In this document: in pieces, positions 12,335 through 33,599 of the stretch
Layout of the letters: each line of letters starts with the position of its first letter
Position numbering within the stretch: position 1 is the stretch's first letter
Virus record (IMG/VR): IMGVR_UViG_3300045918_000146
Location: 1 to 64,000 of that record
Direction: 5' to 3' (one strand)
From: a virus
DNA length: 64,000 bases
Program-made: the position numbers and the translations under genes
Notes under the pieces: generated by a model
What the model was told of the DNA's origin: nothing
Seen by the model: the letters and a program-made list of their open reading frames with translations, nothing else
Databases searched by the model: none

Positions 12335-14635
12335 ATGATCAATTCAAATCCAGAAATTGAAGTTATAGTATCTAATGCAACTAATAGTGCTAAAAGTTCT
12401 TACCACGAGTATGTAACGTTAGAACATCTAACACTAGCATTGATTAACTATAAACCATTTAACCAACTAATAGTTGATTTTGGTGTAGATGTTCTATCCT
12501 TACAACAAGAATTAAATACATATTTAGCATCTCAACAATATTTAATTAGTAAAAACCCAGATTACGAAACACCACGTAGAACACATGCACTAGAAAGAGT
12601 CTTTAATCGTGCATTTACGCAGGTATTGTTCAGTGGTCGAAATACTATGCAAGTTATAGACGTATTTGTTAGTGTAGCTGGAGAACAACATAGTTTTACA
12701 CAATATCTTTATGCAAAGTATGGACTTGATAGACAAGGGCTAATTGATTTCTATAAGAAAAATTATAACGAAGCAAAAAGTTCAAAAACTGCTATGTCAT
12801 CAAAAGCTGACCAAATACTCGAAGAGTACTGTACTGATCTTAATAAGAGAGCAATTGAAGGTAAAATAGACCCTGTTATCGGAAGAGATAATGAGCTTGA
12901 AGAAATATCAGAGACATTGGCACGTCGAGGTAAAGCTAACGTTCTTATTATAGGTTCCGAAGGCATAGGTAAGACTGCGATCGCAGAAGGCCTAGCACTA
13001 CATATAGTAAATAAGCAAGTTCCTGATTATCTATACGAGTATACAGTATATAATCTTGATATTGGGTCTCTACTTGCAGGTAGTAAGTATAGAGGTGAAT
13101 TTGAAGAAAAGCTAAAAGACGTTTTAAAGGCACTTGATCAAAAAGGAAAAACGATCTTATTCATAGACGAAGCACACCAAATGCGTGGAGCAGGTGCTGG
13201 ATCTGGAGGATCTTCGGTAGACTTTGCAAATATGATTAAACCTGCTTTAACAAAAGGTAATATTAAAGTTATTGCGTCTACTACATGGGCTGAATATACA
13301 CAATCCTTTGAAAAGGATCGTGCTTTAATGAGACGGTTTCATAAACTGGTTATTGAAGAACCTACACCAGCAGTAGCAAAAGACATTTTACGTGGGTTAA
13401 AAACACACTTTGAAAAATTCCATAATGGTACGATAGATGATACAGCAATTGAAGCTGCTGTAGATTTGTCAGTACGCTATCAAACAGATAAGCGTTTACC
13501 AGATAAGGCAATTGATTTGATAGATACCGCATGTGCTAAGATGCGTATTAAGAATGCACCATTTACCATTACAAGATCAAACATTGTTGATACTATTAGC
13601 AAATTTACGAAGATACCAGCCGACCAAATAGGGTCAGAACATACAACAACTTCCCTCGAAGGCTTAGAAGAAAACGTAAAATCACAAGTGTTTGGACAAG
13701 ATAAAACAATAGATGAAATCTTAGAGAAAATCTACGTTGCTAGGGCAGGATTAAAGTCTATTAATAAGCCAGTTGGATGTTTCTTATTTACAGGCCCAAC
13801 AGGAACAGGAAAATCATTGACTGCAAAGGCACTAGCAGAAAACTTAAATATGAAGTTGATCAGGTTCGACATGGGAGAATTCCAAGAACGTCATTCGGTT
13901 GCAAAGTTAATAGGTGCTCCTCCGGGGTATATTGGTTATGAGGACAGTAACCTAGGTGGTGGATTATTAATTAGTGAAATTGAGAAAAATCCTAATTCAA
14001 TTATCTTATTTGACGAGATAGAAAAAGCACACCCTGACGTATCTAATATCTTATTATCGTTAATGGATGAAGGTGTTGTAACTAGCAGTAATGGTAAAAA
14101 AGCAGACGCTAGAAATACAATTATTATATTAACATCTAACCTCGGCGCAGTTGAAAGCGAAAAGCACTCAATTGGCTTTGGACATAATGTAAAAACAGAC
14201 GAAGATGATAAGGCACTCAAGGAATTTTTTAAGCCAGAGTTTAGAAATAGGTTAGATGGTGTGTGTCGTTTTAATAAATTAACGACTACCGATATAAAGA
14301 AAATTGTAGATAAAGGTATACACGAAATTAACGACTTATTAAGTGATAAACATATTAAGATTACACTTACTGACATCGCTATAGAGTATCTAGCCGATAA
14401 AGGATTTGATGCTAAAATGGGTGCAAGACCAATGGCACGTAAGATCAATACGTTAATAAAAGTTCCTTTGAGTAAGAAGATATTATTTGATCACATATCT
14501 AATGGTTCAAGCATAGTAGTAGACATTGTGAACAACGAAGCAACATTTGTAGTTACTGAACCTTTAGTGTCACAAATATTGTTAGGTAATAACACTAAAC
14601 CAACAGTTGATGTTAATGGATATGTGGTTGTTTGA
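12335..14635 (+). CDS. clpA: ClpA-like AAA+ unfoldase
   Basis: Clp N domain; two NBDs (GSEGIGKT/FIDEAH; GPTGTGKS/FDEIEKAHP); SIGFG ClpP-docking loop; no ClpB M-domain. Confidence 0.9.
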   Translation: MINSNPEIEVIVSNATNSAKSSYHEYVTLEHLTLALINYKPFNQLIVDFGVDVLSLQQELNTYLASQQYLISKNPDYETPRRTHALERVFNRAFTQVLFSGRNTMQVIDVFVSVAGEQHSFTQYLYAKYGLDRQGLIDFYKKNYNEAKSSKTAMSSKADQILEEYCTDLNKRAIEGKIDPVIGRDNELEEISETLARRGKANVLIIGSEGIGKTAIAEGLALHIVNKQVPDYLYEYTVYNLDIGSLLAGSKYRGEFEEKLKDVLKALDQKGKTILFIDEAHQMRGAGAGSGGSSVDFANMIKPALTKGNIKVIASTTWAEYTQSFEKDRALMRRFHKLVIEEPTPAVAKDILRGLKTHFEKFHNGTIDDTAIEAAVDLSVRYQTDKRLPDKAIDLIDTACAKMRIKNAPFTITRSNIVDTISKFTKIPADQIGSEHTTTSLEGLEENVKSQVFGQDKTIDEILEKIYVARAGLKSINKPVGCFLFTGPTGTGKSLTAKALAENLNMKLIRFDMGEFQERHSVAKLIGAPPGYIGYEDSNLGGGLLISEIEKNPNSIILFDEIEKAHPDVSNILLSLMDEGVVTSSNGKKADARNTIIILTSNLGAVESEKHSIGFGHNVKTDEDDKALKEFFKPEFRNRLDGVCRFNKLTTTDIKKIVDKGIHEINDLLSDKHIKITLTDIAIEYLADKGFDAKMGARPMARKINTLIKVPLSKKILFDHISNGSSIVVDIVNNEATFVVTEPLVSQILLGNNTKPTVDVNGYVVV

Positions 14636-17056: not shown

Positions 17057-17839
17057 ATGAGCCTACAATACTTACATAAACCAGCTTATAGTAATTGGTT
17101 AATGCTAGACCCTAATGGTATAGAAATGTGCCGTTGTGCAGATAAACGAGCAAAATGGTACTTGGATCGAAATCTTGCAGATATAGTAAATGAAGATCCC
17201 CCAACCTTTAAACTTAAATTTGCACCAAATGGAAATGGGAATAAAGACGATGCTTATAGTTTGGCTCAAAAGTTTAATAGATGTGCAGTCTGTGGTACAG
17301 AGGACGAATTAACTAAGCATCATATCGTTCCGTATATGTATAGGAAGTGGTTTCCTACTAAATTAAAAGGACGATCAGCACATGATGTAGTCGTTATATG
17401 TGTAACATGTCATGAGAATTACGAAACTAGTGCAATGATATTAAAGAAGCAGATTAGTTTAGAAATCACAAATAACACACAATTAACTACTAAATTAACA
17501 GCTATACAATCACATAATAAGCGTATAGCACGTTTATGCTCTGCACTGTTAAAAGATAGCGGTTCTATTCCAAACAGTAGAAAAGATGAAATTATTTCAA
17601 ATATAACAGAACATTTAGGTTATAAGCCATCTATAACAGATCTTAATAATCTTATAGAAATAAGTAAAGCTCATACTAAATGTAATCAAGATCCAGGTAA
17701 AGAGATTGTTGAATGTGTGATAAAAGATAATAATCTTGACTGTTTCATACGAAGATGGAGACAGCATTTTATTGACATTGCATGTCCAATGTTCATGCCG
17801 GAACATTGGAGTATAGAAAGGAGAAGTAAAATTGAGTAA
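17057..17839 (+). CDS. HNH-like protein resembling the EXD2 C-terminal domain
   Basis: KRAKWYLDRNLA; CAVCG...TKHHIVP..YR; HDVVVICVTCH; FIRRWRQHF. Confidence 0.7.
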   Translation: MSLQYLHKPAYSNWLMLDPNGIEMCRCADKRAKWYLDRNLADIVNEDPPTFKLKFAPNGNGNKDDAYSLAQKFNRCAVCGTEDELTKHHIVPYMYRKWFPTKLKGRSAHDVVVICVTCHENYETSAMILKKQISLEITNNTQLTTKLTAIQSHNKRIARLCSALLKDSGSIPNSRKDEIISNITEHLGYKPSITDLNNLIEISKAHTKCNQDPGKEIVECVIKDNNLDCFIRRWRQHFIDIACPMFMPEHWSIERRSKIE

Positions 17840-18308
17840 ATATGTATTGTTTTGGGGTGGTAATTTCAGCAATTGGGCAAAGAGCGAGTTCACCTATAAA
17901 GGTATAAAGTTCTATACAGCAGAAGGTGCATTTATGTGGGAGAAATCTGTCTGTTTTGGCGATGTTGAAAACGCAAATGCAATATTAAAGATAAAGCAAC
18001 CAGATGTTCAAAAACAACTAGGTAGATGTATATCTGGCTATAACGAAGAAGTTTGGGCAAATGTTAGGTATAGAGTAATGTTAGACGTATGCCGGGAGAA
18101 ATTTACACAGAATAGAAAATTACTAACTGAATTACTTAATACAGGAAGTAAAATTATCGTTGAAGCGAGTCCATATGATACAATCTGGGGAATAGGACTT
18201 GGTGTAGAAGATCCGCGTGCATTAGACGAAACACAATGGCTGGGTCAAAACCTATTAGGTAAGGTTTTAATGGAACTAAGATCTGAATTTGTTACTAGCT
18301 TAGAGTGA
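17832..18308 (+). CDS. NADAR (YbiA-like) family protein
   Basis: FSNW, KQLGR, KFTQN, LLNTG, IVEASPYDTIWGIG, GQNLLGKVLMELR. Confidence 0.92.
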   Translation: MSKYVLFWGGNFSNWAKSEFTYKGIKFYTAEGAFMWEKSVCFGDVENANAILKIKQPDVQKQLGRCISGYNEEVWANVRYRVMLDVCREKFTQNRKLLTELLNTGSKIIVEASPYDTIWGIGLGVEDPRALDETQWLGQNLLGKVLMELRSEFVTSLE

Positions 18309-18327: not shown

Positions 18328-18540
18328 ATGAAAAAAATTAATGAATTAAACCTTAAAAAAAGTAATGAAGTCAATTTAACTGATTGCTCTAAAGGGCAAA
18401 TCATTGATTGGTATCATACTCATACATCAGGGTCACATATACCTAATGAGATATTGGCTCCAAGCCATGCTGCTTTTAAAGAATGGTTCAATGATGTGCA
18501 TACTCTCGCGACAGAAATTTTAGAGTCTGTTAAACAATGA
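18328..18540 (+). CDS. hypothetical protein
   Basis: 70 aa, AGGA RBS. Confidence 0.55.
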   Translation: MKKINELNLKKSNEVNLTDCSKGQIIDWYHTHTSGSHIPNEILAPSHAAFKEWFNDVHTLATEILESVKQ

Positions 18541-18881
18541 GAATTTCCGATATAACGAATGAAAAATCTATAGACGAGGTTAATAACGATCTTAATAACG
18601 ATCTTAATATCTTAATTAAAGACTTAACAGATATTAAACAGCATATACCAGAACTTATTAAAGTACATGGCTACGAAGAAGCAAGAGAAATGATTCTATT
18701 ATTAACCAATAAAGTACCTGATCCAATAACTCATTATTATGTATTTTGGTACAAAACAACAGCGAAATTATTAAATAAGTATAGAAACCTTAAAGATCAA
18801 ATAGAAAATAAGATTAATTCTGGCGTCAATGAAGGAATAAACCTCGCACAAGTCAAATATGACGCTCTACAGTGTATTTGA
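18537..18881 (+). CDS. putative internal head protein (CTS-like N-terminus)
   Basis: Starts MRISDITNE; internal SIDE and VNE-G sites. Confidence 0.55.
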   Translation: MRISDITNEKSIDEVNNDLNNDLNILIKDLTDIKQHIPELIKVHGYEEAREMILLLTNKVPDPITHYYVFWYKTTAKLLNKYRNLKDQIENKINSGVNEGINLAQVKYDALQCI

Positions 18882-18905
18882 TGTACAGTTAATCTCTACA
18901 TATTA

Positions 18906-18944
18906 GTGAACTACTACGGCCCTAAAGGGTACTGCGGGCTTGCC
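18906..18944. mobile_element. degenerate IS200/IS605-family terminal hairpin
   Basis: gtgaactac...ccctaaaggg...gcttg resembles the GTCAACTACCC-CTAAAG-GGGCTTG subterminal motif; no transposase nearby. Confidence 0.4.
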
Positions 18945-18947
18945 GCC

Positions 18948-18983
18948 TAAATGACTAAATTCGCATAAATGACTAAATTCGCA
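18948..18983 (+). repeat. 18-bp direct tandem repeat x2
   Basis: taaatgactaaattcgca twice, directly before the late motif ATAAATA (18983-18989). Confidence 0.9.
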
Positions 18984-19010
18984 TAAATAACTAATATGTA
19001 GGGGTTATAT

Positions 19011-20459
19011 ATGCGAATTAAGGAAATATACGAAGCTGTTAGTAAGAAAATATTAGTTATCTACCCTGGGAGATTCCAACCGTTTCATAAAGGACACTAT
19101 GCGGTATATCAACATCTGTGTGAGAAATACGGAGAGGGTAACGTAGTTGTAGTAACATCAAATAAAGTAGATCCACCTAGATCACCGTTTGATTTTGGTG
19201 AGAAAATGACTATGATGACACTAACTGGTGTAAATTCAAATGCTATAGTACAAGATGCACAACCATACCAGGCTAAAGAATTAGTTGCTAAATACGATCC
19301 AGATTCTACGATTTTAATATTTGCTGTATCAGAAAAAGATATGGCCGAAGATCCTAGATTTCAATTTAAACCAAAAAAAGATGGCTCTCCTAGTTATTTC
19401 CAACGTTTACCTGACCAACTTAACAAAGCCAAGCCACTAAAATATCACGGGTACATTGCTACGGTCCCAACATTTAATTTCGAAGTATTGGGTCAACCTG
19501 CTAATAGTGCAACACAAATACGTGCCCAATTTGCTAATGCAGATGAAGCTACACAAAAAGCAATAGTAACTGACTTATTTGGAAAATTTAGTACTAGTGT
19601 ATTAAATATAATGCAACGTAAATTAATTATTCAAATTGAATCTATTTACACAGACTTAGTCACAATGCCCGCTTCGGATCTGCAACAAATTAACAAAACA
19701 TTAACAGAAATAAATAATGTCGCATTGACAGGTAATAATAAAAAACCATATGAATTACTAAAACAGTTAAACACGTATATTAATATCATACCTAATCAAA
19801 GATCTGACCAGTTAACTGAATCAATACTAACTATATTTAATAGAGCTATTAAATGTGCAGCACAACTACAGGTTGAGAATTTTGAAAAAGCAGTATTGCT
19901 AAGTGATAATAGTCAAGTATTTCATCCAACTAATGCACAAAAAGCTCATCATACAGTTAAAGAAGCAATAGACGCAGAAACTAATGATAAACGTCAATTA
20001 TTATATCGTACTAATACAGTTATATCAGGATTCCCTAAAGGTACTAAAGTTAGGCGTGTATCAGGATCAAATCGTATGTATGAAGTAATGCAAGATGGTA
20101 AAGTTATAAAGGTTATTCCATTAAGTTTAACTCAGATAACTCCTATATTAATAAGCGGAAATTTAATTGATGGAGAAGTGAAAAACACAAATATCACGTT
20201 ACCTATAAACAGTGTTCGTGAATCCACTACATCCAGTAAAGTATATTACTTCATTAATGTAGATAACTTATTAACAAAGGATCCAAACTTATCATCGGCG
20301 CATCTTAAAGCAAAAGGACTAAGATGTACACAAACTGGGGAATGGTTTTTACCTACAGATACCGAAAACGAAAATAAAACCCTGTTTTTAAGTCAGTTAA
20401 AGCACATAGAAAATATATGTCAAACAAAAGCAAAAAGATGGCATCCAAAAGCTAAATAA
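19011..20459 (+). CDS. HxGH nucleotidyltransferase (cytidyltransferase-like) with CTS-like N-terminus and extra C-terminal modules
   Basis: YPGRFQPFHKGH, SATQIR; starts MRIKEIYE-A; internal QIE-S, LTE-S, VKE-A, VRE-S sites. Confidence 0.8.
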   Translation: MRIKEIYEAVSKKILVIYPGRFQPFHKGHYAVYQHLCEKYGEGNVVVVTSNKVDPPRSPFDFGEKMTMMTLTGVNSNAIVQDAQPYQAKELVAKYDPDSTILIFAVSEKDMAEDPRFQFKPKKDGSPSYFQRLPDQLNKAKPLKYHGYIATVPTFNFEVLGQPANSATQIRAQFANADEATQKAIVTDLFGKFSTSVLNIMQRKLIIQIESIYTDLVTMPASDLQQINKTLTEINNVALTGNNKKPYELLKQLNTYINIIPNQRSDQLTESILTIFNRAIKCAAQLQVENFEKAVLLSDNSQVFHPTNAQKAHHTVKEAIDAETNDKRQLLYRTNTVISGFPKGTKVRRVSGSNRMYEVMQDGKVIKVIPLSLTQITPILISGNLIDGEVKNTNITLPINSVRESTTSSKVYYFINVDNLLTKDPNLSSAHLKAKGLRCTQTGEWFLPTDTENENKTLFLSQLKHIENICQTKAKRWHPKAK

Positions 20460-20504
20460 GATTAAGACTAAATACATATACATTATTAAGGATCTAATAG
20501 AATT

Positions 20505-23500
20505 ATGAAGTTTACAGATATAATACCCGAAACACAACAACTAGATGAATTAACCGATGCACAAAAGTATCGTATAGCCCAACTTAATGATGTGGGACAG
20601 AGAATGATAGACGTAAATACCACATTTAATGATGCTAAGAAATTTAACGACAAGGATACGCTATTAGCCGCTAAAAGTAAGTTGGCACAGCTTGCAAAAT
20701 TAAAAGCTAGCATAGAATCACAACCAGTTGACGAAGATATAGAAGAAGTAGTAACATTGGATATATATGATCAAAAGATTGATTCTTTAGAAACAGCAAT
20801 AGTTAAAATGAAAAACCAATTAGCAAATCTACAATCTCCGGTGACCGAAGGAATTAACATGACAAGCAAGCAACTATCAGAAGAACTTACACGTATTAAG
20901 TTAACAATGCTGGATTGTAATAAGATAATTATGCAAGCTAAAAAGGATCTAGATGAGAGTTTAGAATTAGAGGCTCGCGAAAAATTAGAAGAATTAACAC
21001 ATGTAAAAAATCAACTAGAAGCAAGTATTACTAATGAATCTGTGGGGCTTACTGGTCCGGTTGATCGTAAGGCCGGCGCAAAGGCATTTGAGAAGCTAAT
21101 TAAAAAATTCCCTAGTTTAGCTCCTATATATAAAAAACAAGCCGCTAATTTAGGTATACAATTAAAAACACCACGTGTCACAGAAGTTAATGCAAAGGCA
21201 GCAAAGAAAGCAGTTTTGGAATATATCACACGATATCCTAAATTGCGAGAAAAGGTTTTAGCTGAAGAAGGTGGACGTTGGGCATATAATCAGTTTGGGG
21301 AACCAAAAGAAGTTCCTGTACATGCAGAAGTTGCTCGTATAGCTGCAAATAAAAACAAGTATAATAACAACGTATTTAACACCGGTGACGAAGATACAAA
21401 CGTATTCTCTCCTAATAGAGAAGAATCGGAAATTGACGAAAACACCGATATTATTAATCAATATTCAACATTTGCTGCATGGAATTTAGCTGTAAAGCAT
21501 AAAGGATTACGTATTGAAGTACATGCAAATTCATATGGTCCAGACGAGTCAGATCCATATAAAACAGCTTATGCTGTAAATAAAGCTGACGATGTACTTG
21601 GATGCTGCACTGTTCACGAAAACGGCGAAACAGAAGCAGTACTATTTGAGTCGCCGAGCGAATTCGAATCATGGATGCATCAAAATGATAACCAGGTTGA
21701 CGAAGGATCAGACGAAGATGTAATGTCATCAGCTAACTTAGTGTCTGGTCCAGGTGCTCGTGCAGATGAGCCAAAATCACGCGATGATCAAATGATGGAC
21801 CAACATTTTAAACATTCGTATCCTGGTAAATGGAATAAAGAAAACAGTGTAGATCAAGAGACCAAAATTACAGAAGGCGAAAATACCAGAGCACAACTCG
21901 ATGTTACTCGACTTGATCGACGCGAATTAGCTCGATTACAAGACGAGTTAGAAAATGTCGGATTAGTAATAGGAAAAGATTTCTTTATTAAATCGGGTGG
22001 CCCAGCTTGGATTACTTATGCTGCATATGATAGAGAACCATTAGAAATTCTAATGGACTATGGGGTTGGAGAGGAAGAATTAAACGAAGCACCCCGAGAC
22101 CACGCAGTGTCATTTAACGATGATCCTTTAAAAACTGATATTAAATGGTCTATTGATCACGCAAAGTCTAAATTATCATCGAGCATAACTTACGAAGATG
22201 TTAAAACAGCATGGTTACGTGTATTCCCTAATAGTTCTGTTCAAGTTAACAAAGCTGCTTTAAGTAAAGATGCTTATACTTTTAAATTCCGTTTAGCTAA
22301 AGATAAAACAGAAGTTTCTAGTCAAATTATGGATAATGATCCATTAAATTATACTGGAATATTAGAAAATAATACATTTAAAGAATGGTCTGGTTCAATG
22401 CTGGTCAAGCCTCCAGTAGGATCCTATTTAGCGTTTGGTAGTGCTAAGTTTATGAAGAAAACTATTAAGGATGTAACAGTAGAAAAATTACTAAAACGTT
22501 TCGAACAAGTGAAAAAATTTGTATCTGATCATGCCGATGAATTACATAATATAAAGTTTGACATTAACGATAAATTAGATAGTATAAACGAGAGTAAAAT
22601 AGATAATCCGTGGATAGGAATAGGATTTGACATAAGATCAACTAAGTTATGGCCAGCGGAAATATTCGAATCTAAACATCCAGACTTTGCTCGGTGGATT
22701 TCAGCTTATAGAAAAAATTTAACAATGCCAACGGCAGGAAAAAAATGTATTCTTGCAATAGCAATTTGTGATACTTCTGATATCACAGTATTACATGGCG
22801 TTGCAGAATATGTAGGAGAAACTAATACAGATTATATATTAATAAATAGCACTGGAGAACACGAGTACTCTAAAAAGGATCAACTAGTATTTAACTCAAA
22901 GAAGGCGTTTGAACATTTTACAACAATGATTGCTCTAAAATTTGGAGAAAGTACATTAGCTGTTAAACAACAACCTGTAATGGAAGCCTATGGTAAACCA
23001 AACAAAGAAGCCGCAAAAGCAAAGTGGATGACAGAATTTGAGAAGAGTGTAACACGCCTTAATTCAAAATTATCAGGTAAGATAGAATGGGATTCTGCAA
23101 CTTATTTCTTTAACAGTGGTAAAAATCCAACTGATGCTGCCGAGCAATATGTAAACAGTAGATTAGATGAATCTATACCAGAAGAAGATTTTCTTGGCCC
23201 AGATATGACAGTCGACAACGACCCGGTAACTTCTTATCCTAGAAAAACCGTCGAGAATTACAGTGATGAGGAATTAGCGATAGAATGGGATAAACCAAGT
23301 TTTCCTAAAAAGTCCGGAGAGCGTAACACATATCGTAACATAGACGACGATGGCGACGATTATACTGAGTGGTCAATGCGTCAGGGAGAAATGGGGCGTA
23401 TAGGCGTTATTGATGAATATACTGCACAGCCTGGCGTATTGAATCCTTCAAGTAAGAAATTAGATGCTATGTTTGCACAACAAGATAAAGATTATAATGA

Positions 23501-24134
23501 ACGTAAAGGTCATAATATGATTCCTAATTTTAAAAAGGATAATAAGAATTTATCTGACGAAGAGGAAATTTTTTATGAAAATGCAACAAGCGGCGCATGT
23601 TCTTCTGGATCAGTTGCTACTGTAGTAGCTCCATTAGGCGCCACACAACGTAGAACTAAAAAATCTAAGAGCACGTATGCAAATTCAGATTCGAACTATA
23701 AATCTAGTGCTATTGGACAAGGTATATACGAAAGTAGTGTCGCAGAGGAAGAGACTAATTGCGTAATGATGGATATCGCAGCAGCATGTAGTAGAGCTTA
23801 CCCAGATATTGAACCAGATACATATTTAATTCAGTACACTAATAATAACAGCGAATTAAATATAAGGTTGCTTGATAAAGCATGTCGTATTAACCATAAT
23901 GTGGACTATCATACATACGTGAATATGTTTTGGCAAGAACAAACAGCTTCGACTGCATTAGATGAGGGTATTGAAAAATCAGATTACGATAAATATATGG
24001 ATCATTATAATTACAGTCACGAAACTAAATCAAAGAAAAAACCACAGCAAAAGAAGCCATGGGATCAAAAGCAAAAAAGTGAAACAGCATCTGATATTAT
24101 AGCAAGACGTAATCTAGAAAAGAAATTAAAGTAG
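20505..24134 (+). CDS. 1209-aa mosaic putative head-packaged polyprotein
   Basis: CTAAATA late motifs at 20452 and 20468; starts MKFTDIIPE; recurrent [ILV]xE-[SGAN] sites between unrelated segments. Confidence 0.75.
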   Translation: MKFTDIIPETQQLDELTDAQKYRIAQLNDVGQRMIDVNTTFNDAKKFNDKDTLLAAKSKLAQLAKLKASIESQPVDEDIEEVVTLDIYDQKIDSLETAIVKMKNQLANLQSPVTEGINMTSKQLSEELTRIKLTMLDCNKIIMQAKKDLDESLELEAREKLEELTHVKNQLEASITNESVGLTGPVDRKAGAKAFEKLIKKFPSLAPIYKKQAANLGIQLKTPRVTEVNAKAAKKAVLEYITRYPKLREKVLAEEGGRWAYNQFGEPKEVPVHAEVARIAANKNKYNNNVFNTGDEDTNVFSPNREESEIDENTDIINQYSTFAAWNLAVKHKGLRIEVHANSYGPDESDPYKTAYAVNKADDVLGCCTVHENGETEAVLFESPSEFESWMHQNDNQVDEGSDEDVMSSANLVSGPGARADEPKSRDDQMMDQHFKHSYPGKWNKENSVDQETKITEGENTRAQLDVTRLDRRELARLQDELENVGLVIGKDFFIKSGGPAWITYAAYDREPLEILMDYGVGEEELNEAPRDHAVSFNDDPLKTDIKWSIDHAKSKLSSSITYEDVKTAWLRVFPNSSVQVNKAALSKDAYTFKFRLAKDKTEVSSQIMDNDPLNYTGILENNTFKEWSGSMLVKPPVGSYLAFGSAKFMKKTIKDVTVEKLLKRFEQVKKFVSDHADELHNIKFDINDKLDSINESKIDNPWIGIGFDIRSTKLWPAEIFESKHPDFARWISAYRKNLTMPTAGKKCILAIAICDTSDITVLHGVAEYVGETNTDYILINSTGEHEYSKKDQLVFNSKKAFEHFTTMIALKFGESTLAVKQQPVMEAYGKPNKEAAKAKWMTEFEKSVTRLNSKLSGKIEWDSATYFFNSGKNPTDAAEQYVNSRLDESIPEEDFLGPDMTVDNDPVTSYPRKTVENYSDEELAIEWDKPSFPKKSGERNTYRNIDDDGDDYTEWSMRQGEMGRIGVIDEYTAQPGVLNPSSKKLDAMFAQQDKDYNERKGHNMIPNFKKDNKNLSDEEEIFYENATSGACSSGSVATVVAPLGATQRRTKKSKSTYANSDSNYKSSAIGQGIYESSVAEEETNCVMMDIAAACSRAYPDIEPDTYLIQYTNNNSELNIRLLDKACRINHNVDYHTYVNMFWQEQTASTALDEGIEKSDYDKYMDHYNYSHETKSKKKPQQKKPWDQKQKSETASDIIARRNLEKKLK

Positions 24135-24135
24135 A

Positions 24136-24609
24136 ATGAGATTCTATGAATTTGTAAGTGATATGCCTATATATGATTCTGAATTAGAACATCTTAAAGA
24201 ATGGTCAGTAGAACATAACAGAAACTTTACTGAATCAGTAGATGACGAAAAAGTTACAGAGATAAAGGACTTCTTTAAAAGATACATAATAGACCCAAGT
24301 AGTTTAACTATAGGTGAAAAATATTTTCCAATTGAACTTGTTACTAGGCCATTCGCTAATTTAATTGAGATGACAATATCAAATCATCCACTTACATACT
24401 TAGGAGATCACGATGAGAAATTTATCTTTAAAGGGGAAAAATTACAAATTAAAGTGCCAATCTATAAAGATTTAGTAAGTGATTTTGGACCCTTTTTAAT
24501 GTTAACTACAATATATACCACCATTGCAGAATGCGAGCATTTTAACATGATATTCTTAATGCAGTTTAAAGGTAGATGGAAAATACAACAGAAGGAGTTT
24601 TTGGTATGA
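24136..24609 (+). CDS. putative internal head protein
   Basis: Starts MRFYEFVSD; FTE-S site. Confidence 0.65.
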   Translation: MRFYEFVSDMPIYDSELEHLKEWSVEHNRNFTESVDDEKVTEIKDFFKRYIIDPSSLTIGEKYFPIELVTRPFANLIEMTISNHPLTYLGDHDEKFIFKGEKLQIKVPIYKDLVSDFGPFLMLTTIYTTIAECEHFNMIFLMQFKGRWKIQQKEFLV

Positions 24610-24944
24610 GATCACATGAATTTATTTTTGAAGATGAAAACGACGAGAACCCGTATGCACGAGTAAACGACGGTCAACCACATTATAAGTTTAATGCTGT
24701 TCCGAAGGAAAAGCCGTCAAAACTACAAGATTTATGCAGACTAAATAATGTAGCAGTTAGAGATATCGTATATAATCCTGATAAAGAAATGTGCCAAATA
24801 ATGCAGATTGGCGAAAAAGGGTTTAAAGTATTTAATTACGAAATACCTGAAGATAAAGTCGAATGGTACGAATTAAAGATGCTAACTAAGCAAGATAAAT
24901 ACGGAAAACTAGTTCCACTAATAGAGAAAACAAATGACAAATAA
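24606..24944 (+). CDS. putative internal head protein
   Basis: ATGA overlap; starts MRSHEFIFE. Confidence 0.65.
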   Translation: MRSHEFIFEDENDENPYARVNDGQPHYKFNAVPKEKPSKLQDLCRLNNVAVRDIVYNPDKEMCQIMQIGEKGFKVFNYEIPEDKVEWYELKMLTKQDKYGKLVPLIEKTNDK

Positions 24945-27900
24945 TACAAATATGAGGAAAATACTTGAGACTATCGACAAGTTTTCTGCTAAGCCAGCTA
25001 TTAATGAGAATAAAACGCCTAGCACTAAACAACTAACTTCTAGGGTTAGTAGGATTAACGAATCCACATCACCACAACTTATAGCAAAATATACAAAAGA
25101 CGAAGATATATATTATCTATGGAGAACAGGAGAATACACTTACCAACTGGATACTAAAGACTTTAAGAAAATAGCTAAATGGACAGAAAAAGATTTAGAG
25201 GATGTGAAAGCAGAGATCAATTCAAAAGGGTATAATGAGGATGAGCTCAGCGAAAACGCAGATAATAAGTTTGTTGGGACAGTATACCATTTAGACGAGG
25301 AAGATAAATCTAACGGCCATATGGAAGACTGCGACTGCGATGAATGTGTACGTAGATACGGATTTAATAGTGAAATAAAAGAAGATCAGACTGATAATAT
25401 TTTAGAACCGTTATCAAAAGCTATCTACATATTAGGTAATAGTAATGCATATTCAAAACAAGCAAAAGATATATTTAGCTTAATTCATCATATGTTAAGA
25501 ACACGTTTAATGAAGAACGATATGGAAGGCTTTACACAGGCGTATAATGATTTACAAGGACGGTACCCAGATGAATTTGATGAATTTATAGATACAGCAT
25601 TTGAAAATGCTGGGCTAACACATCATGCCACAATAGAGGATTTTATAGCACTTATGTCTGAAAATAACGGAATAAGTAGTTCTGGAGACGTTAGTATCGA
25701 AGAATCTATCGACGATATAAAAGAATCGTTAGTAGCTGCATTTGAAGATTATGTAAGCAATGAAAAGTACGACTATCAAAAACTGTACCCAAAGAAAGTT
25801 ACTAAACCGACAACCGATAAGAAAAAACCTAAAATAGAAAAAGCAGTTGATCCTAAATTAATTCAAGATAACTTAACTGAAAGTAGGTCAGAATTACTAG
25901 CTAACTCAATTATTGACCATATTATGGTTGATCATCCAGATCTTATTTCGTATTACGGCAAAAAATATGTAGATGCAGCTATTAAGCGTATAGCAGATAC
26001 TTACGCAAACGCATCAAACCAAATATCTAAAGATATTAATAGTTTAGTAGATCAAGTAAAACATGAACTACAATGTAATATGAAACAAATAGACGAAACG
26101 GGTGCATTAACAACACTAACACCGTCAGGGGAGCGTCCTTGGAAACCATCTTTTGACGTACCTAAAAAGAAAAATCCTGCTATAGGATCTCTTGCGTTTG
26201 AAAAATTATCCAAATATGAGCAAGATAAGTTACGTAAGATAAGTGATGCTCGTGCCGAAAAACGTTATAAAATAAAAGAAGGTGCTGGCGCAAGTACAGA
26301 AGCTGTAGCGAATGCTATAGCAGCACGTTTAGATAGTAGACATCCTGAAATATTCACACGATACGGAGTAGAATATGTTTATACTGCAATTGAAGAAGTA
26401 GCATCTTTTCATGCAGGAACAGAAGAATTAGGTACTAGTGATATTAGCATTATGGTCCGCGAAGTTATTAAAGAGTTAGAGAGTAAGACAGACGCATTAG
26501 ACGAATCTATTAAGGAATATACTGTATATTGTTCGCAGTGCGGTGGGGAATTTAAAAATAATGTACCAACAGGTTTCAGTCACTGTAGAGATCATGCTGG
26601 TCAACAAAACTTAGATGGGGGTGTCTATAAAGGCGACATGGATTTAGATGAGATGTCAATCAATAGAACAAAAAAGCCATCAGAGAATCGCGATCTGTGG
26701 GACAAAATAAATCGTAAGGGCGTGGTACCAAGCATTGATCGTGTCCGCTATACTGATCTATCTCATGAAGGATTAGAAGGTCCGTTCCGCGCAAAGAATG
26801 GCCAAGTATTATATTACGATCCAAAAGAAGGTAAGTATTACGATCGAGATAAAGATATGTATGTTGATCACGGATTAGACGAATCAACAAATAAAAAACC
26901 TAAATCAGACATATTTAATTTACCCATTGCATATACAGAAGATAAAGTTACAGGCGTAAAGCAAACAGATACACCATTTTTCGTTTATCAAAATCGCAAA
27001 GTTGGTTTATCTGGAAGATCAACTAAATCATTAAAAGAAGCAAAAGAATTTATACAGAATCAAACTACTCCAACTAAACATGCAGCAATACAACGACCAA
27101 ATAAGCGTTTTGCAACACGAGACATAGTTGATTCGCGAGAGTTCATTGAATATGTCACCGAATTTCGTAGAAAATTAGGAAACAGTGTTTCTAATAGATA
27201 TGAATCCACTGACGTTAAAAAAATATGTTCAAGTATATTTGCTAGGGCAGAACTAAGAGAATCGGCAAATCTAACTACTGCAAGGAAACAATTTATTGAC
27301 AAATTTACGAGTCGTGATCAATTTGACCAAATGAATATTGCAAAAGGAAAAATGGCTTCTGTTATCGAAACTATGGTTGTTGGCAATTATATAGAATTAT
27401 GGGGGTTTGTAAAGCCCAAAAAGATAACTCAAATTGAATATAAAGATAATGGCGAAATTGAATTTATTATATTTAACAATGATACATCGACTAGATATCC
27501 TAGGATTGATGCTGCATCTTACCAAGGAGAATCGATTGATCATAGTATTTTTCTTAAGGATCAACCTTCTGCAGAGCAAACTATTGTTATGCTCATGCTG
27601 GCAATACCGCACGGATTTAAACCAAAATATAACATTACCGATTACGCTGATCCAACCGATTATTCTAAAGATAATTCTAAAAAGTTAATTCCATCAAAAA
27701 TCAATGAAACAAAAAGTTTATCCAAAAAAGTAAAAATCGTTTCTGGCCAATATTCCGGGCAAACTGGTTGGATAAGAGAAATCAAACACGGCGCCTTTAA
27801 AGGCGCACCAAAGAGATATTATGTCGACTTGGATAACGGAGATCAAGCAAATAACTTGTTAGGAACAGCTCTACGTCTAATTAAAGAGCCTAGCAATGAA

Positions 27901-28629
27901 CCTATTGTCAACGAAGAATCAATTGCTGACGAGTTGTACCGTTTGAAAAGACAATTAAATTCTGCATACGATAAAGCAGTAAGAAGTAAGTTTGAGAACG
28001 ATGTAGAAAATGAACAAGTTCGTATATTAAGAAGAAAAATTCAAGAGTTAAAAGGTGATATAGAACTTCGTGCTCGTGACCAAATGCAAGAGGGCGCACG
28101 TGATATTATCTCTCAAAAGTTAAAACAAATTAATGACAGAAAGAAACCGTGGCCTACACGCCAGCATAGCTCGATGCAATCTGCACTTGATAAACTGGGC
28201 GAAAAACTTGCCGATATTAAGATCGACTTTAATATGGATGATAAAAAGCCAGTTGAAGAAGATGCTCCTATTGATCAGCAAGTTGCACCATTAGTAACTA
28301 CAGGAGCACCTACGCAAACAACTGCCACTAAGCCTACAGGAACTATACCGCCAGGGTCTCCGGCTACTACGCAAACCCAACAAAGTAACACGTCTACTCA
28401 ACCACCGGCAGCAGGATCTACAACACCTAACCCAGCAACCAATGCTAGTACTACACCTACAAATGCTCCTGCAGGAACAACGCAAGCTCCTGCATTAACG
28501 CCAGGGCAATCTCTAGTAGCAGGATTACAAAAAGTAGCAAGCACTTATACTGGTGCTGACTCTAGTGCTCTTAAATCAGGCATAAATACGTTAGCAAATC
28601 AAGTAAAACTACCGCCAGGAATAAAATGA
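24934..28629 (+). CDS. 1231-aa mosaic putative head-packaged polyprotein
   Basis: Recurrent [ILVM]xE-[SGNTD] sites; duplicated helical module; KOW/SH3-like module; CxxC module; P/T/A-rich tail. Confidence 0.75.
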   Translation: MTNNTNMRKILETIDKFSAKPAINENKTPSTKQLTSRVSRINESTSPQLIAKYTKDEDIYYLWRTGEYTYQLDTKDFKKIAKWTEKDLEDVKAEINSKGYNEDELSENADNKFVGTVYHLDEEDKSNGHMEDCDCDECVRRYGFNSEIKEDQTDNILEPLSKAIYILGNSNAYSKQAKDIFSLIHHMLRTRLMKNDMEGFTQAYNDLQGRYPDEFDEFIDTAFENAGLTHHATIEDFIALMSENNGISSSGDVSIEESIDDIKESLVAAFEDYVSNEKYDYQKLYPKKVTKPTTDKKKPKIEKAVDPKLIQDNLTESRSELLANSIIDHIMVDHPDLISYYGKKYVDAAIKRIADTYANASNQISKDINSLVDQVKHELQCNMKQIDETGALTTLTPSGERPWKPSFDVPKKKNPAIGSLAFEKLSKYEQDKLRKISDARAEKRYKIKEGAGASTEAVANAIAARLDSRHPEIFTRYGVEYVYTAIEEVASFHAGTEELGTSDISIMVREVIKELESKTDALDESIKEYTVYCSQCGGEFKNNVPTGFSHCRDHAGQQNLDGGVYKGDMDLDEMSINRTKKPSENRDLWDKINRKGVVPSIDRVRYTDLSHEGLEGPFRAKNGQVLYYDPKEGKYYDRDKDMYVDHGLDESTNKKPKSDIFNLPIAYTEDKVTGVKQTDTPFFVYQNRKVGLSGRSTKSLKEAKEFIQNQTTPTKHAAIQRPNKRFATRDIVDSREFIEYVTEFRRKLGNSVSNRYESTDVKKICSSIFARAELRESANLTTARKQFIDKFTSRDQFDQMNIAKGKMASVIETMVVGNYIELWGFVKPKKITQIEYKDNGEIEFIIFNNDTSTRYPRIDAASYQGESIDHSIFLKDQPSAEQTIVMLMLAIPHGFKPKYNITDYADPTDYSKDNSKKLIPSKINETKSLSKKVKIVSGQYSGQTGWIREIKHGAFKGAPKRYYVDLDNGDQANNLLGTALRLIKEPSNEPIVNEESIADELYRLKRQLNSAYDKAVRSKFENDVENEQVRILRRKIQELKGDIELRARDQMQEGARDIISQKLKQINDRKKPWPTRQHSSMQSALDKLGEKLADIKIDFNMDDKKPVEEDAPIDQQVAPLVTTGAPTQTTATKPTGTIPPGSPATTQTQQSNTSTQPPAAGSTTPNPATNASTTPTNAPAGTTQAPALTPGQSLVAGLQKVASTYTGADSSALKSGINTLANQVKLPPGIK

Positions 28630-28663
28630 AAAAAATAATAAATACACAACAAGGAGTTAAATA

Positions 28664-29302
28664 ATGTTTCTTTTTGAACTGTTTGAGACACAAACTACTA
28701 AGAATAATTTTATAAATATTACGCCAAATACGTTGCGTACATATACTCCTCTAATTAATCAATATAAGAAAATGTACGATATTCAAGATGATATTGACTT
28801 TGCGTATGATGCAAGCTCTCACCAGTTAAAAGCCATCACAGACAAGGCAAATCCTTTTATATCAGATTTAAAAATTAGAACATCTCCTGAATATATGAAT
28901 AGAAGTCGTCTATCCGAAGATGAACCTGTTGTTTCTTTAGATCCAGCAGTAGATACATTAGTTGATCAATGGATTGCCAAGTTATCTGCACAAACACCAA
29001 CACCAACAGCTCGTTCAGTGTCTAGTACTATAGCAAGTGTATTACATCTGAAAGCTAAAATCTCATATAATTCTGCATTAACTGTTGTTGTACAAAAACT
29101 AAGAGATTTAGGAACTGATATATTAGAGGACGAATTAAACGAAACAATAGACTACCAAAAATCTTATAGGTCAGCAATAGCACGGGCGTCTGTTGCAAAG
29201 TCGGAAGCAGAAAAGATACATTGGCGCAAATTAGCTGATAGTTATAAGATGATAGCAACTAAACAGCAACAAAGATTAAAAGAACATTACCTGGACCGTT
29301 AG
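28664..29302 (+). CDS. putative internal head protein
   Basis: ATAAATA at 28638, AGGAG RBS; starts MFLFELFE-T; LSE-D and LNE-T sites. Confidence 0.7.
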   Translation: MFLFELFETQTTKNNFINITPNTLRTYTPLINQYKKMYDIQDDIDFAYDASSHQLKAITDKANPFISDLKIRTSPEYMNRSRLSEDEPVVSLDPAVDTLVDQWIAKLSAQTPTPTARSVSSTIASVLHLKAKISYNSALTVVVQKLRDLGTDILEDELNETIDYQKSYRSAIARASVAKSEAEKIHWRKLADSYKMIATKQQQRLKEHYLDR

Positions 29303-29387: not shown

Positions 29388-29816
29388 GTGAATGACTATA
29401 TAGCTCAAGGGAATAATTTGTACGTTAAAATTAATTCGGACGGACATATAACGTTGAGTTATGACGGAATTAACTGGCCTACATATACTTGGCCTCAAAA
29501 TGCACCTGCTCCATTTAAATCTCGAGATGCACACTGGCAATATTATGGAATCGCTTTTGCACAAGGACACTTTGTAGCGTTTGGCAATCACATCGTTATT
29601 ACTAGCACTTGTTTACCAGGTAGCGAATGGTCATCTACACTAACTACTGGTGGAATATGGCAAACAGCCTCATTTAACGGTAGTAATTGGGTATTACAAG
29701 ATAATGAAGGCAGGATTGCAACCTCGGCTGGTGCTTATCCTGCTAACTGGTCGATTACAGCAGCAACTATACCAATACAAGATCTATCCGAAACAGACCC
29801 ATCGACTAATTTCTAA
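29388..29816 (+). CDS. hypothetical beta-repeat protein
   Basis: GTG start with AAGGA RBS; SYDGINW and similar Asp-box-like repeats. Confidence 0.6.
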   Translation: MNDYIAQGNNLYVKINSDGHITLSYDGINWPTYTWPQNAPAPFKSRDAHWQYYGIAFAQGHFVAFGNHIVITSTCLPGSEWSSTLTTGGIWQTASFNGSNWVLQDNEGRIATSAGAYPANWSITAATIPIQDLSETDPSTNF

Positions 29817-30130
29817 ATACTTATTCTTGGATAAAACTGTAATACGTTGTTATCATCAACAATAATAAACTTATCTTGAATTTGTTCATTTAGATATTCA
29901 ACTATGTCAGATGTTGCTTCAAACCATTCTCCATTCGACCGAACTTTCTTAAACCGTTTATGTAATTCCGATTCTAACTCAAAGCCGCCAGGAAAGTAAC
30001 CAAGTAATATCAACTTCTTTGCATTACCAGTAGACAAATTACTTTTTCTTTTATTTGGTCGAACAGATACCCCTATCTTAATATATTGTCCGTCCGTCAT
30101 TGCATAAACAAATGGTTTATTCATAATCAT
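29813..30130 (-). CDS. GIY-YIG superfamily T5orf172/MUG113-like protein
   Basis: VYAM..YIKIGVS..P.KR..LSTGN, ESELHKRF, GEWF. Confidence 0.85.
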   Translation of the reverse strand: MIMNKPFVYAMTDGQYIKIGVSVRPNKRKSNLSTGNAKKLILLGYFPGGFELESELHKRFKKVRSNGEWFEATSDIVEYLNEQIQDKFIIVDDNNVLQFYPRISI

Positions 30131-30848: not shown

Positions 30849-33599
30849 ATGAGTTATATAGATGCGTTTTTAGAAAAAGATAAAGATGTTATTCACATCG
30901 TTGAACGAGATAAAACAGGTAAAAGAATATATAAAGATATATCGGCGCTGTATGAATTTTATTACGATGACCCAAAGGGAAAATATCAAACTATTTATAG
31001 AACATCAGTAAGCAAAATTACCACTAATAGTAATAAAGAATTTCGTAAAGAATTAAAGATGCAAGGAAATAAAAAAACATGGGAAGCAGACTGTAATCCT
31101 GTGTTTAAGTGTTTAGAAAAAAACTACTTGGGAGTAGAGTCTCCCAAGTTACATACGTGTTTTCTGGACATTGAAACAGACTGGAACTCTGGAGAAGATA
31201 CCACGAATCCGATTGGTTATGCCCCAACGGATAATCCATACAACAAAATTACTGCAATTACCATTTACTTAGATTGGATGGATAAGCTAATTACGCTAGC
31301 ATTACCTCCCAAATCATTAACCCGGGAATCTGCTGCAGAAATAGCAGCTAAATTCGATGATACTTATTTATTCCAAAAAGAATCTGAGATGCTTGATACT
31401 TTCTTAACTCTTATTGAGGATGCAGATGTATTAAGTGGCTGGAACTCTGGAGGTTACGATATACCATATATAGTAGGGCGTATCATACGTACCTTAGCTA
31501 AAAACGATTTACGAAGATTATGTTTATGGGATCAAATGCCCAGAGAACGGAAATTTGAGAAATATGGTGCAGAACAAATCACATATGACCTAATAGGCCG
31601 TGTGCATTTAGACTATATGGACCTTTATAGAAACTATACATATGAAGAACGTCATAGTTATTCACTAGATGCAATCGGAGAACACGAACTAGATGAACGT
31701 AAAGTATCTTATGAAGGATCATTAGATCAACTATATAATCAAGATTTTTATAAATTTCTTGATTATAATAGACAAGATGTAGTGTTACTAGCAAAATTAG
31801 ATAAGAAGTTAAAATTTTTAGATTTAACAAACGAAGTAGCACATAGTAACACCGTACTATTACCAACTACTATGGGTACTGTTGCGTTAGTAGATCAAGG
31901 TATTACCAACGAAGCACATCAACTAGGTTATATTGTACCCAATAGACCACAACATAAATCTGTTACGACGTTTGATTCAGACGGTGAAGAAACAACTCAA
32001 CAAGATCGTGCAGCCGGTGCGTATGTTGCATACCCTAAAGTTGGTATGCATGAATATATAGGTGCTATAGACATTAATTCACTATATCCTTCTACTATAC
32101 GTGCATTAAATATGTCACCTGAAACTATCGTAGGTCAATTAAGACCTATAATGACAGATCAATATATTGCCAATAAAGTAGATGCTGGTGCATCTTTTTC
32201 CGGAGCATGGGAAGGTTTATGGGGGTCGTTAGAATATACAGCAGTAATGGAAATGGACCGTAATACAGAGGTTACTATAGATTGGGATAATGGAGATAAA
32301 CCGTCTGTTCATTCAGCTAAAGAGGTATGGAGCATCATCTTTGAGAGTGGTCAAAAATGGATGCTTAGTGCTAACGGTACTATTTTTAAATATAACTACG
32401 AAGGTATTTTACCGTATATGCTTGCTAAGTGGTATTCAGAAAGAAAAGAACTTCAAGCTAAGAAAAAAGCTGCCACCGAAAAAGAAGAAATATTATTTTG
32501 GGACAAAAAACAACACGTAAAAAAAATTCTATTAAATTCGGCATATGGAGCCGCGTTAAACGCACATTTTAGATACCACGATTTTAGAATTGGGCAAAGT
32601 ACTACATTAACTGGGCGTATTATTACTAAACACATGACGTCCTTTATTAATGAATGTTTAACTGGCGTCTATCAATATGACGGCAACGCCGTCATATATT
32701 CGGATACTGACAGTGCATATTTCTCAGTGTGGCCAATTATTAAAGATGATGTTAAAGCAGATAAAATGGAATGGAATAAAGATATATGTGTTCAACTGTA
32801 CGATGGAATAGCTGAGCAAGTAAATGAAAGTTTTCCAGCTATAATGGAAAAACAATGTCATTGTCCAAAAGATCGCGGGTCATTGATTAAGGGTGGACGA
32901 GAACTTATTGCAACAAGTGGAATATATGTAACAAAAAAACGTTATGCTGTGTTAGTATACGATTTAGAAGGTACGCGATTAGATCAACTAGACGAGACAA
33001 CAGCAAAGAAAAAAGGTATTCATTATGGCTTAGGAAAAGTAAAAGCTATGGGTCTCGATTTAAAGCGTAGTGATACTCCGAAGGTAGTACAGGAATTTTT
33101 AAGTCGCATCTTACTTGATACTCTATTACACAAACCGCGAGAGAAAGTAATAGAACATATTATTGAATTCAAATTATCATTTGCTAAACTCCCAGCGTGG
33201 GAAAAAGGTACGCCTAAACGTGTAAATAACTTAACTAATTATATCGAAACAGAAGAGCGCGAAGGTAAGTCGGGTATGCCAGGGCATGTCAGGGCAGCAT
33301 GGAACTGGAATAACTTAAGAAAAATGTATAATGATAATTATTCTCTTAAGATAGTAGACGGAATGAAGATCATCGTATGTAAGTTGAAGAATAATCCACT
33401 AGGATATACAAGTGTTGCTTACCCAATTGATGTCTTGCATATACCAGATTGGTTTAAAGACTTGCCATTTGATAATGCTTTAATGGAAGCAACTATTGTA
33501 GATAAAAAAGTGGAAAACTTATTAGGCGTATTAAAGTGGGATTTGGCAAATTCAACACAAACGAATTCAACGTTTGATTCTTTATTTAGCTTTGTGTAA
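30849..33599 (+). CDS. family B DNA polymerase
   Basis: Exo motifs DIET, GWNS.GYDIPY, YNRQD; pol motifs DINSLYPS, KILLNSAYG, YSDTDS, KKRYA. Confidence 0.97.
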   Translation: MSYIDAFLEKDKDVIHIVERDKTGKRIYKDISALYEFYYDDPKGKYQTIYRTSVSKITTNSNKEFRKELKMQGNKKTWEADCNPVFKCLEKNYLGVESPKLHTCFLDIETDWNSGEDTTNPIGYAPTDNPYNKITAITIYLDWMDKLITLALPPKSLTRESAAEIAAKFDDTYLFQKESEMLDTFLTLIEDADVLSGWNSGGYDIPYIVGRIIRTLAKNDLRRLCLWDQMPRERKFEKYGAEQITYDLIGRVHLDYMDLYRNYTYEERHSYSLDAIGEHELDERKVSYEGSLDQLYNQDFYKFLDYNRQDVVLLAKLDKKLKFLDLTNEVAHSNTVLLPTTMGTVALVDQGITNEAHQLGYIVPNRPQHKSVTTFDSDGEETTQQDRAAGAYVAYPKVGMHEYIGAIDINSLYPSTIRALNMSPETIVGQLRPIMTDQYIANKVDAGASFSGAWEGLWGSLEYTAVMEMDRNTEVTIDWDNGDKPSVHSAKEVWSIIFESGQKWMLSANGTIFKYNYEGILPYMLAKWYSERKELQAKKKAATEKEEILFWDKKQHVKKILLNSAYGAALNAHFRYHDFRIGQSTTLTGRIITKHMTSFINECLTGVYQYDGNAVIYSDTDSAYFSVWPIIKDDVKADKMEWNKDICVQLYDGIAEQVNESFPAIMEKQCHCPKDRGSLIKGGRELIATSGIYVTKKRYAVLVYDLEGTRLDQLDETTAKKKGIHYGLGKVKAMGLDLKRSDTPKVVQEFLSRILLDTLLHKPREKVIEHIIEFKLSFAKLPAWEKGTPKRVNNLTNYIETEEREGKSGMPGHVRAAWNWNNLRKMYNDNYSLKIVDGMKIIVCKLKNNPLGYTSVAYPIDVLHIPDWFKDLPFDNALMEATIVDKKVENLLGVLKWDLANSTQTNSTFDSLFSFV

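Follow-up and report, generated by a model that had tools for sequence, protein, structure and literature searches.

The stretch of DNA analysed, referred to below as the window, comprises positions 1 to 64,000 of the IMG/VR virus record IMGVR_UViG_3300045918_000146 and represents the first 64 kb of a 79-kb contig. It contains a run of eight consecutive genes (18328-29302) that begin with leaders similar to the capsid targeting sequences (CTSs) of phage T4, and two members of this run are the long open reading frames (ORFs) A and B, both of them open under table 11. The initial annotation of this DNA had interpreted the two ORFs as cargo trains, packaged into the head and cut into many small proteins injected with the DNA. 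Analysis of their leaders, their modules and the joints between the modules indicated that ORFs A and B are probably head-cargo polyproteins of a giant phage of the T4 superfamily.

The leader-bearing gene island

The eight genes of the run, or island, are listed below (aa, amino acids; the bar follows the Glu of a cut-type site). Two of them are read from inner Met codons.

18328..18540 (+): gene of 70 aa, first of the run; leader MKKINE|L
18537..18881 (+): gene of 114 aa; CTS-like leader MRISDITNE|K
19011..20459 (+): protein of 482 aa; leader MRIKEIYE|A directly before a cytidylyltransferase-like HxGH nucleotidyltransferase domain (PF01467, E 1.8e-9)
20505..24134 (+): ORF A (P0001), 1,209 aa, 137 kDa; proposed cargo chain of about 15 pieces; leader MKFTDIIPE|T
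24136..24609 (+): gene of 157 aa; leader MRFYEFVSD
24606..24944 (+): gene of 112 aa, read from an inner Met of ORF 24576-24944; leader MRSHEFIFE|D
24934..28629 (+): ORF B (P0002), 1,231 aa, 139 kDa; proposed cargo chain; leader MRKILE|T from Met7 (24952)
28664..29302 (+): gene of 212 aa, last of the run; leader MFLFELFE|T

The T4 internal proteins are the textbook case of proteins that are co-injected with the DNA and disarm host defences, each of them being encoded by one small gene. A CTS of 10-19 residues takes them into the prohead core and is then removed (PMC9026906, PMC3012670), and the prohead protease gp21 cuts after Glu at L/I-x-E (PMC9026906). Foreign proteins as large as beta-galactosidase are brought into T4 heads by CTS fusions (PMC9026906). 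The internal proteins leave the head along with the DNA and vary greatly from one T4 relative to another (PMC9026906, PMC3012670).

Translated from NC_000866, the CTSs of T4 read MKTYQEFIAE|A (IPII and IPIII) and MKTFKEF...ITE|A (IPI). The island leaders are of the same M-K/R-x-aromatic-x-E-F type as those of IPI, IPII, IPIII and Alt, ending in a hydrophobic-x-Glu site, and by sequence they resemble the N-terminal propeptide that characterises T4 internal proteins. CTS-like leaders were present in all eight island genes (8/8) versus 3/87 others (Fisher p 1e-9). By analogy with Alt, which T4 packages in its head, the 482-aa nucleotidyltransferase is a candidate for an enzyme carried in the same way.

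The family-B DNA polymerase of the window (30849-33599) was 40-47% identical to those of Phosso, Atu_ph07, 121Q, XaC1 and Vibrio phage 2.275.O, all giant T4-superfamily myophages, and 55% identical to that of G001, an uncultured contig of 327 kb. CheckV completeness of the 79-kb contig was 21%, from which a phage genome of roughly 370 kb is estimated. Comparison of the region with 50,697 phage records retrieved no DNA-level match to cultured phages (megablast), and the ORF A protein had no match in the same records (tblastn). ORF B matched cultured phages only through one module of 44 aa, the cultured matches being single-module protein matches, and related-locus searches seeded with P0001, P0002 and P0009 found no relatives.

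Modules and the sites at their joints

Both ORFs had been described as strings of unrelated segments, and this description held: ORFs A and B show no similarity to each other, and the relatives differ from module to module. The HMMER scan of ORF A against 1.8 billion representatives retrieved 239 proteins, each matching one module or a few, and fragments between sites were indeed found as separate genes in other phages. Elsewhere, the modules of ORF A are stand-alone ORFs of 60-145 aa or occupy other orders and positions within proteins of 400-1,500 aa; those of ORF B likewise recur both stand-alone and shuffled, and one metagenomic protein, P0004, unites modules from both ORFs. Residues 320-391 of ORF A correspond to an ORF of 84 aa, 455-525 to one of 90 aa, 561-691 to more than 60 ORFs of 120-145 aa, 703-829 to one of 161 aa and 828-889 to ORFs of 59-71 aa. 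The segments defined in this way are the following.

20505..20549 (+): ORF A leader, residues 1-15, MKFTDIIPE|TQQLDE|L
20550..20735 (+): ORF A N-terminal helical 'chassis' module, residues 16-77; ends QPVDE|D
21441..21704 (+): ORF A module 1, residues 313-400, from IDE|N312 to VDE|G400; stand-alone relative P0127 (84 aa)
21705..21875 (+): ORF A disordered linker, residues 401-457, with VSGPGA motif; ends ITE|G457; predicted local distance difference test (pLDDT) 31-46
21876..22088 (+): ORF A module 2, residues 458-528; ends LNE|A528; stand-alone relative P0091 (90 aa)
22089..22592 (+): ORF A module 3, residues 529-696, folded core 561-691; ends INE|S696
22593..22985 (+): ORF A module 4, residues 697-827; ends VME|A827
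22986..23171 (+): ORF A module 5, residues 828-889; ends LDE|S889; stand-alone relatives of 59-71 aa; pLDDT 84-98
26653..26883 (+): ORF B module, residues 574-650, from LDE|M573 to LDE|S650; relative KVP40.0154
27709..27888 (+): ORF B KOW/SH3-like module, residues 926-985, behind INE|T925

The Q-L-x-E| site of the ORF A leader is conserved in P0085, P0098, P0118 and P0131. The chassis module is common to P0085, P0098, P0099, P0102, P0110, P0118, P0131 and P0048, with V-x-E| at the same end in all of them. Module 3 has more than 60 stand-alone relatives of 120-145 aa and a structural relative in GAP32_011; some of its stand-alone genes elsewhere bear leaders of their own (MKSSEFIVE|N, MKTFKEYIINLQEE, MRVTEIIKE|D). 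The relatives of module 4 include P0003, ending SVME|G, and the stand-alone P0068. Residues 574-650 of ORF B exist as a separate 83-aa gene in KVP40-like vibriophages, between nrdC.11 and dda, and KVP40.0154 has the leader MQGFKDYF...LQE|T. The KOW/SH3-like module is also found behind QGVSE|A in P0005 and P0006.

Two sequence features recur among the chains apart from these modules. The motif [KT][PR]V[SA]GPGA (ORF A residues 411-417, 21735-21755) is repeated in the disordered linkers of many chains (relatives P0085, P0098, P0099, P0110, P0118, P0131 and P0028). Residues 1107-1231 of ORF B (28251-28629) form a low-complexity tail rich in Thr, Pro and Gln, followed by a conserved C-terminal helix; tail and helix are common to P0004, P0009 and P0011, and a comparable Pro/Gln-rich stretch is present in an island protein of the relative G002 (L016 7171-8007).

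All 27 cut-type sites listed in the initial annotation were found in the two ORFs, with Glu at positions 15, 115, 151, 312, 400, 457, 528, 696, 827, 889, 1025, 1076 and 1154 of P0001 and at 25, 43, 107, 150, 257, 316, 388, 449, 524, 573, 776, 925, 1053 and 1109 of P0002; a further site in P0002 is LDE|S at 650. The predicted pieces measure 36-168 aa in P0001 and 12-149 aa in P0002. The general motif, [ILVMF]xE[SGANDT], was above background in both ORFs when compared with shuffled sequences and with other ORFs: 20 occurrences were observed in ORF A versus 9.8 in shuffles, and 19 in ORF B versus 8.0-8.3 (z 3.4-4.0, p about 0.001 or less). Across the remaining 93 ORFs of the window the ratio of observed to expected was 0.98, ORFs A and B occupying ranks 1 and 2 of 95, and among 22 other long relatives the motif reached z of at least 1 in 20. 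The phiKZ-type motif [SAG]xE was at expectation in ORFs A and B (21 vs 20.7 and 18 vs 17.5 expected, z 0.1). As positive control, multi-cut gp21 substrates were enriched (T4 gp22 z 3.3, gp68 z 3.8, gp21 z 4.3), as were homologous scaffolds encoded by relatives (z 6.4 and 6.9), and single-cut substrates (for example IPI-III and capsid proteins) were not. Motif density was 1.5-1.7 per 100 aa in the chains and 4-5 per 100 aa in scaffolds. About 6 of the 20 occurrences in ORF A lie inside folded modules and are probably due to chance; the joint sites suffice to explain the excess over background.

Eleven ORF A sites fall on module ends defined by homology (Glu 15, 77, 312, 400, 457, 528, 696, 827, 889, 1025 and 1076), and in ORF B at least ten coincide with boundaries of the same kind (150, 243, 257, 316, 388, 449, 524, 650, 776, 925, 1053). 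When the C-termini of stand-alone relatives were projected onto all long chains, with a site window from -6 to +12 residues, 23 of 28 had a site nearby versus 10.8 expected. Downstream of module 3, which ends ...FDINxKL, [ILV]-x-E|small occurs at 2-9 residues in 12 of 13 architectures; apart from the site, the linkers show no conservation (DSINE|S, GKNITE|D, GTGAVSE|T, GLGDVAE|S, RVGSLDE|D and others), and the stand-alone forms of this module stop short of the joint site. One joint is nearly fixed, QGVAE|G / GVSE|A / GMAE|A in P0003 and P0005-P0008, and aligns with KINE|T of ORF B ahead of the KOW-like module common to them. At the DNA level the joints have no motif in common other than the codons, which places selection on the peptide. 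An origin of the joints as recombination scars was considered and ruled out on the same ground.

In the AlphaFold2 model of ORF A residues 300-900, modules 3 and 5 exceeded a pLDDT of 90, and modules 1, 2 and 4 were intermediate. Values below 50 were obtained at model residues 98-156, 230-240, 384-402 and 511-530 and at the ends, which are the places of the joint sites. The initial annotation had regarded sites inside folded domains as contrary to its interpretation: the joint sites are located within the segments with pLDDT below 50 or at their edges, and six non-joint motif hits (372, 382, 621, 722, 772, 815) do lie within folded parts of the model. Modelled alone, module 3 was an alpha+beta sandwich with pLDDT 96. 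Its best neighbours in the PDB by VIA-align were Med17C (Z 8.3), the TriTu immunity protein (7.1), T4 MotA-CTD (5.5) and AcrIIA11 (5.0), scores within the range that the tool calls common, so that no function follows from them. Foldseek against the PDB retrieved nothing at E <= 0.001, and the ESM Atlas search gave no usable match. The best viral structural neighbour of module 3 was GAP32_011, a protein of 151 aa encoded among small early-type genes of a cultured giant phage.

Scans of ORFs A and B detected no informative family, with nothing above threshold in Pfam (best KOW, E 0.006) and only families of unknown function in PHROGs; together with the structure searches, they allowed no function to be assigned to any module. 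Polyvalent-type conflict domains (MuF, ART, MPTase, ParB-like, primase) were not found by Pfam in either ORF, and no protease family was found in the chains or the island by Pfam and PHROGs.

Head genes of relatives and a capsid-like peptide

In the related genomes G001, G002 and G004, a protease of the T4 gp21 family (Peptidase_S77; L075 1423-2055 in G001) is encoded, as are a scaffold resembling gp22 and capsid proteins of the gp23 type, whose expected maturation site reads LAE|A or IAE|S. Of the relatives with head genes, G001 is the nearest. The leader-bearing island of G001 is in syntenic position, flanked by a ClpA/B-like gene and the DNA polymerase, and that of G002 adjoins the replicative helicase and holds a multi-module chain of 666 aa. 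In the G002 locus, L016 10319-11275 encodes a leader-bearing (MRAHELTE|Q) muramidase-like protein of 318 aa with a glycoside hydrolase family 19 domain (PF00182, E 6e-16), which may be a wall-degrading enzyme packaged in the head.

One further module of ORF A points to the head.

23580..23732 (+): ORF A basic peptide module of 51 aa, residues 1026-1076, between FYE|N and GIYE|S

This peptide is conserved in 16 proteins as E|DASAGATGSASVATVVSGTPGIIKRTG.KKKGRYGNSV.PKTFSA.GKGIYE|A, with a cut-type site on each side, and the first half is similar to gp23-type capsid proteins at their maturation site and N-arm. A profile of the module, run on 5,602 ORFs taken from about 80 phage loci, found further leader-bearing proteins as well as all three capsid proteins, where it covered the presumed maturation site and the first ~28 mature residues (E 0.007-0.12). 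In G001 the pair is LAE|AATSGATSAGNVATL in the capsid protein and VKE|AATAGATSSANIGVV in an island protein. The E-values of the capsid matches are marginal, and the resemblance is thus consistent but weak.

T4 gene 61.1 (L083 2967-3131) encodes an uncharacterised product of 54 aa with a CTS-type leader, MKTFKEFIKE|D. By eye, its TTSGAV...GP...KKKK stretch parallels gp23 residues TSGAVTQIGPAVMGMVRR: gp61.1 reads MKTFKEFIKE|D...IGTTSGAVVNKGPEQIPKKKK beside ...AGQTSGAVTQIGPAVMGMVRR in gp23. The peptide-module profile did not reach T4 gp61.1 or T4 gp23 (E 47). Also by eye, gp61.1 is like the ORF A peptide module in design and differs from it in being a stand-alone mini-gene; its sequence suggests that it may be a head-internal peptide of T4.

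Proposed packaging and alternative explanations

Since the chains bear a T4-style load-into-head tag and are jointed at the T4-type head-protease motif, they are probably packed into the capsid and cut there. Each chain would consist of about 15 small, independently folding modules that are separate small genes in other phages. The T4-type N-terminal capsid-targeting leader would take the whole chain of 137-139 kDa into the scaffolding core of the prohead, where the activated gp21-type protease would cut after Glu at exposed [I/L/V/M]-x-E|small linker sites, removing the leader and freeing pieces of about 4-19 kDa, comparable in size to the T4 internal proteins. The pieces would remain with the DNA and exit alongside it at infection. 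We infer targeting, cutting, retention, ejection and a host role alike; for the host role, the one indication is that other phages encode relatives of the modules as small genes in early-type regions. The cargo-train interpretation was accordingly sustained in part: its shuffled modules, gp21-type sites at the joints and CTS-like leaders were recovered, together with a lineage that has the gp21-type protease and piece sizes overlapping those of the T4 internal proteins, while the passage of the pieces into the head and the host is predicted.

Interpreted in this way, the chains would be a variant of the T4 internal-protein system. They share with the T4 internal proteins the L/I-x-E| rule, small products (about 8-20 kDa in T4, predicted in the chains) and hypervariable gene content, but no chain module is related to IPI-III or Alt. 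Whereas T4 has one module per gene and a single cut (two in Alt), the chains have about 15 modules behind one leader, a cut-type site at every joint and a mass of 137-139 kDa. Polyvalent proteins combine 2-15 unrelated, shuffled domains, are predicted to be co-delivered with the DNA, and their processing into domains has been proposed (PMC5512222). The chains resemble them in uniting many unrelated domains per polypeptide, shuffled among elements. However, polyvalent proteins have recognisable conflict domains (MuF, ART, zincin-like MPTase, ParB-like, primase and others) and a proposed built-in peptidase, while no Pfam domain or built-in protease was found in the chains and their joints carry the prohead-protease site. 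T4 gp22, gp67 and gp68 and the inner-body or ejection proteins of phiKZ, 201phi2-1 and SPN3US are head-internal and are cut at multiple Glu sites by a gp21-type protease (PMC9026906, PMC5694885). The chains are enriched in the same motif as the multi-cut core proteins of T4 and, unlike the phiKZ-type inner-body proteins, are not enriched in S/A/G-x-E. Core and inner-body proteins are single proteins that are fragmented or trimmed of long propeptides, whereas the chains are built of modules that exist as separate genes elsewhere. Such chains were not described in any text retrieved by full-text searches that combined polyproteins with CTS, prohead protease or jumbo phage.

Several observations weigh against packaging and cutting of the chains, both of which are predictions. 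The T4 late promoter TATAAATA was found 4 times versus 17.9 expected and was absent upstream of the genes; a weaker motif, [CA]TAAATA[CA], lies 20-57 nt upstream of four genes only (19011, 20505, 24952, 28664). The motif [ILV]xE is short, and about a third of its occurrences in the chains are internal. The T4 internal proteins are basic, but many of the predicted pieces are acidic. No prohead protease or capsid genes were found on the 79-kb contig, which represents 21% of the estimated genome, and the genes around ORFs A and B are of replication and metabolism, with no head genes; T4 ipI-III and gene 61.1 likewise sit outside the head gene cluster, as do the equivalent islands of G001 and G002.

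The acidity of many pieces would also suit chains that are packaged and cut but serve as core or filler material, as T4 gp22, gp67 and gp68 or the phiKZ inner body do, with no host role: they would help to build or fill a large prohead core, and the fragments would then be cleared or left as packing. T4 cuts its core proteins at multiple sites (PMC9026906), the motif pattern of the chains is like that of multi-cut substrates, and a conserved set of parts (the N-terminal helical module, the VSGPGA linker and the capsid-like peptide) recurs in many chains. We nevertheless consider this explanation unlikely: the motif density is far under that of scaffolds, the pieces are folded domains in the model (modules 3 and 5), stand-alone relatives are found among small early-type genes (GAP32_011, KVP40.0154), and rapid module shuffling better fits a conflict-driven cargo than a structural role.

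Quite unlikely, too, is that the ORFs encode ordinary, uncleaved multidomain proteins of the cytoplasm, the motif being a property of linkers or helix ends and the resemblance to CTSs a coincidence. The shortness of the motif, the position among replication genes and the absence of the consensus late promoter would all agree with it. Such proteins would hardly explain, however, that the background proteome lacks the excess, that 12 of 13 architectures retain P3 and P1 though linker length and the remaining linker sequence vary, that stand-alone forms end ahead of the site, or that leaders are confined to eight adjacent genes, and the phiKZ-type control was not enriched.

The polyprotein architecture itself, and the ClpA/B-type ATPase gene 6 kb upstream, could be taken to mean that the chains are cut in the cytoplasm by another protease of host or phage for the co-expression of small proteins and are not packaged. 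This we regard as improbable, given that no protease domain was found in the chains or the island, that Clp ATPases are not site-specific, that the site rule is that of gp21 and that leaders and capsid-like peptide point to the head. Artefacts of assembly or frameshift that fuse neighbouring small genes, conceivable in a metagenomic contig, can practically be dismissed, as the modules start with neither a Met nor a ribosome-binding site, the design recurs in at least 22 long chains obtained independently from other samples, and the joints carry a specific peptide motif and no common DNA motif.

Beyond the head-cargo polyproteins as such, leader, prohead-protease joints and capsid-mimicking peptide might together constitute a plug-in packaging code. 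Insertion of any small early protein into a chain would then suffice for it to be pre-loaded and injected instead of being made after entry, the chains would be a fast-evolving, expandable arsenal of ready-made effectors, and the copy of the capsid arm would be a hitherto undescribed signal for addressing or anchoring, which even T4 gene 61.1 would share. Taken as a whole, this proposal is tentative, and we would sooner expect some part of it to fail. If the chains are indeed loaded and cut in this way, one gene with one address tag would let giant T4-like phages deliver a dozen or more different proteins, swappable at standard joints, and the variable filling of large capsids would be explained. 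A large reservoir of small, uncharacterised proteins would become candidate effectors of the first minute of infection, and the leader plus [ILV]-x-E joints would offer a natural design rule by which phage heads could be loaded with several foreign proteins. Should the capsid-arm-like peptide be a signal, it would add a second packaging determinant.

Other genes of the window were annotated as follows. A NADAR-domain protein (PF08719, E 1e-43) is encoded at 17832-18308, directly ahead of the leader-bearing island. At 29813-30130 (- strand), in the interval from the island to the DNA polymerase, lies a MUG113/T5orf172 (GIY-YIG-related) gene, which looks like a mobile nuclease insertion. A phage-encoded homologue of translation initiation factor IF-1 (PF01176, E 1.4e-19) is located at 5340-5552. 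The ClpA/ClpB-type double AAA+ ATPase upstream of the chains (PF07724, E 2.5e-51; phrog_4871) is located at 12335-14635, and a gene of this type is also kept upstream of the G001 island (L008 6654-8927).

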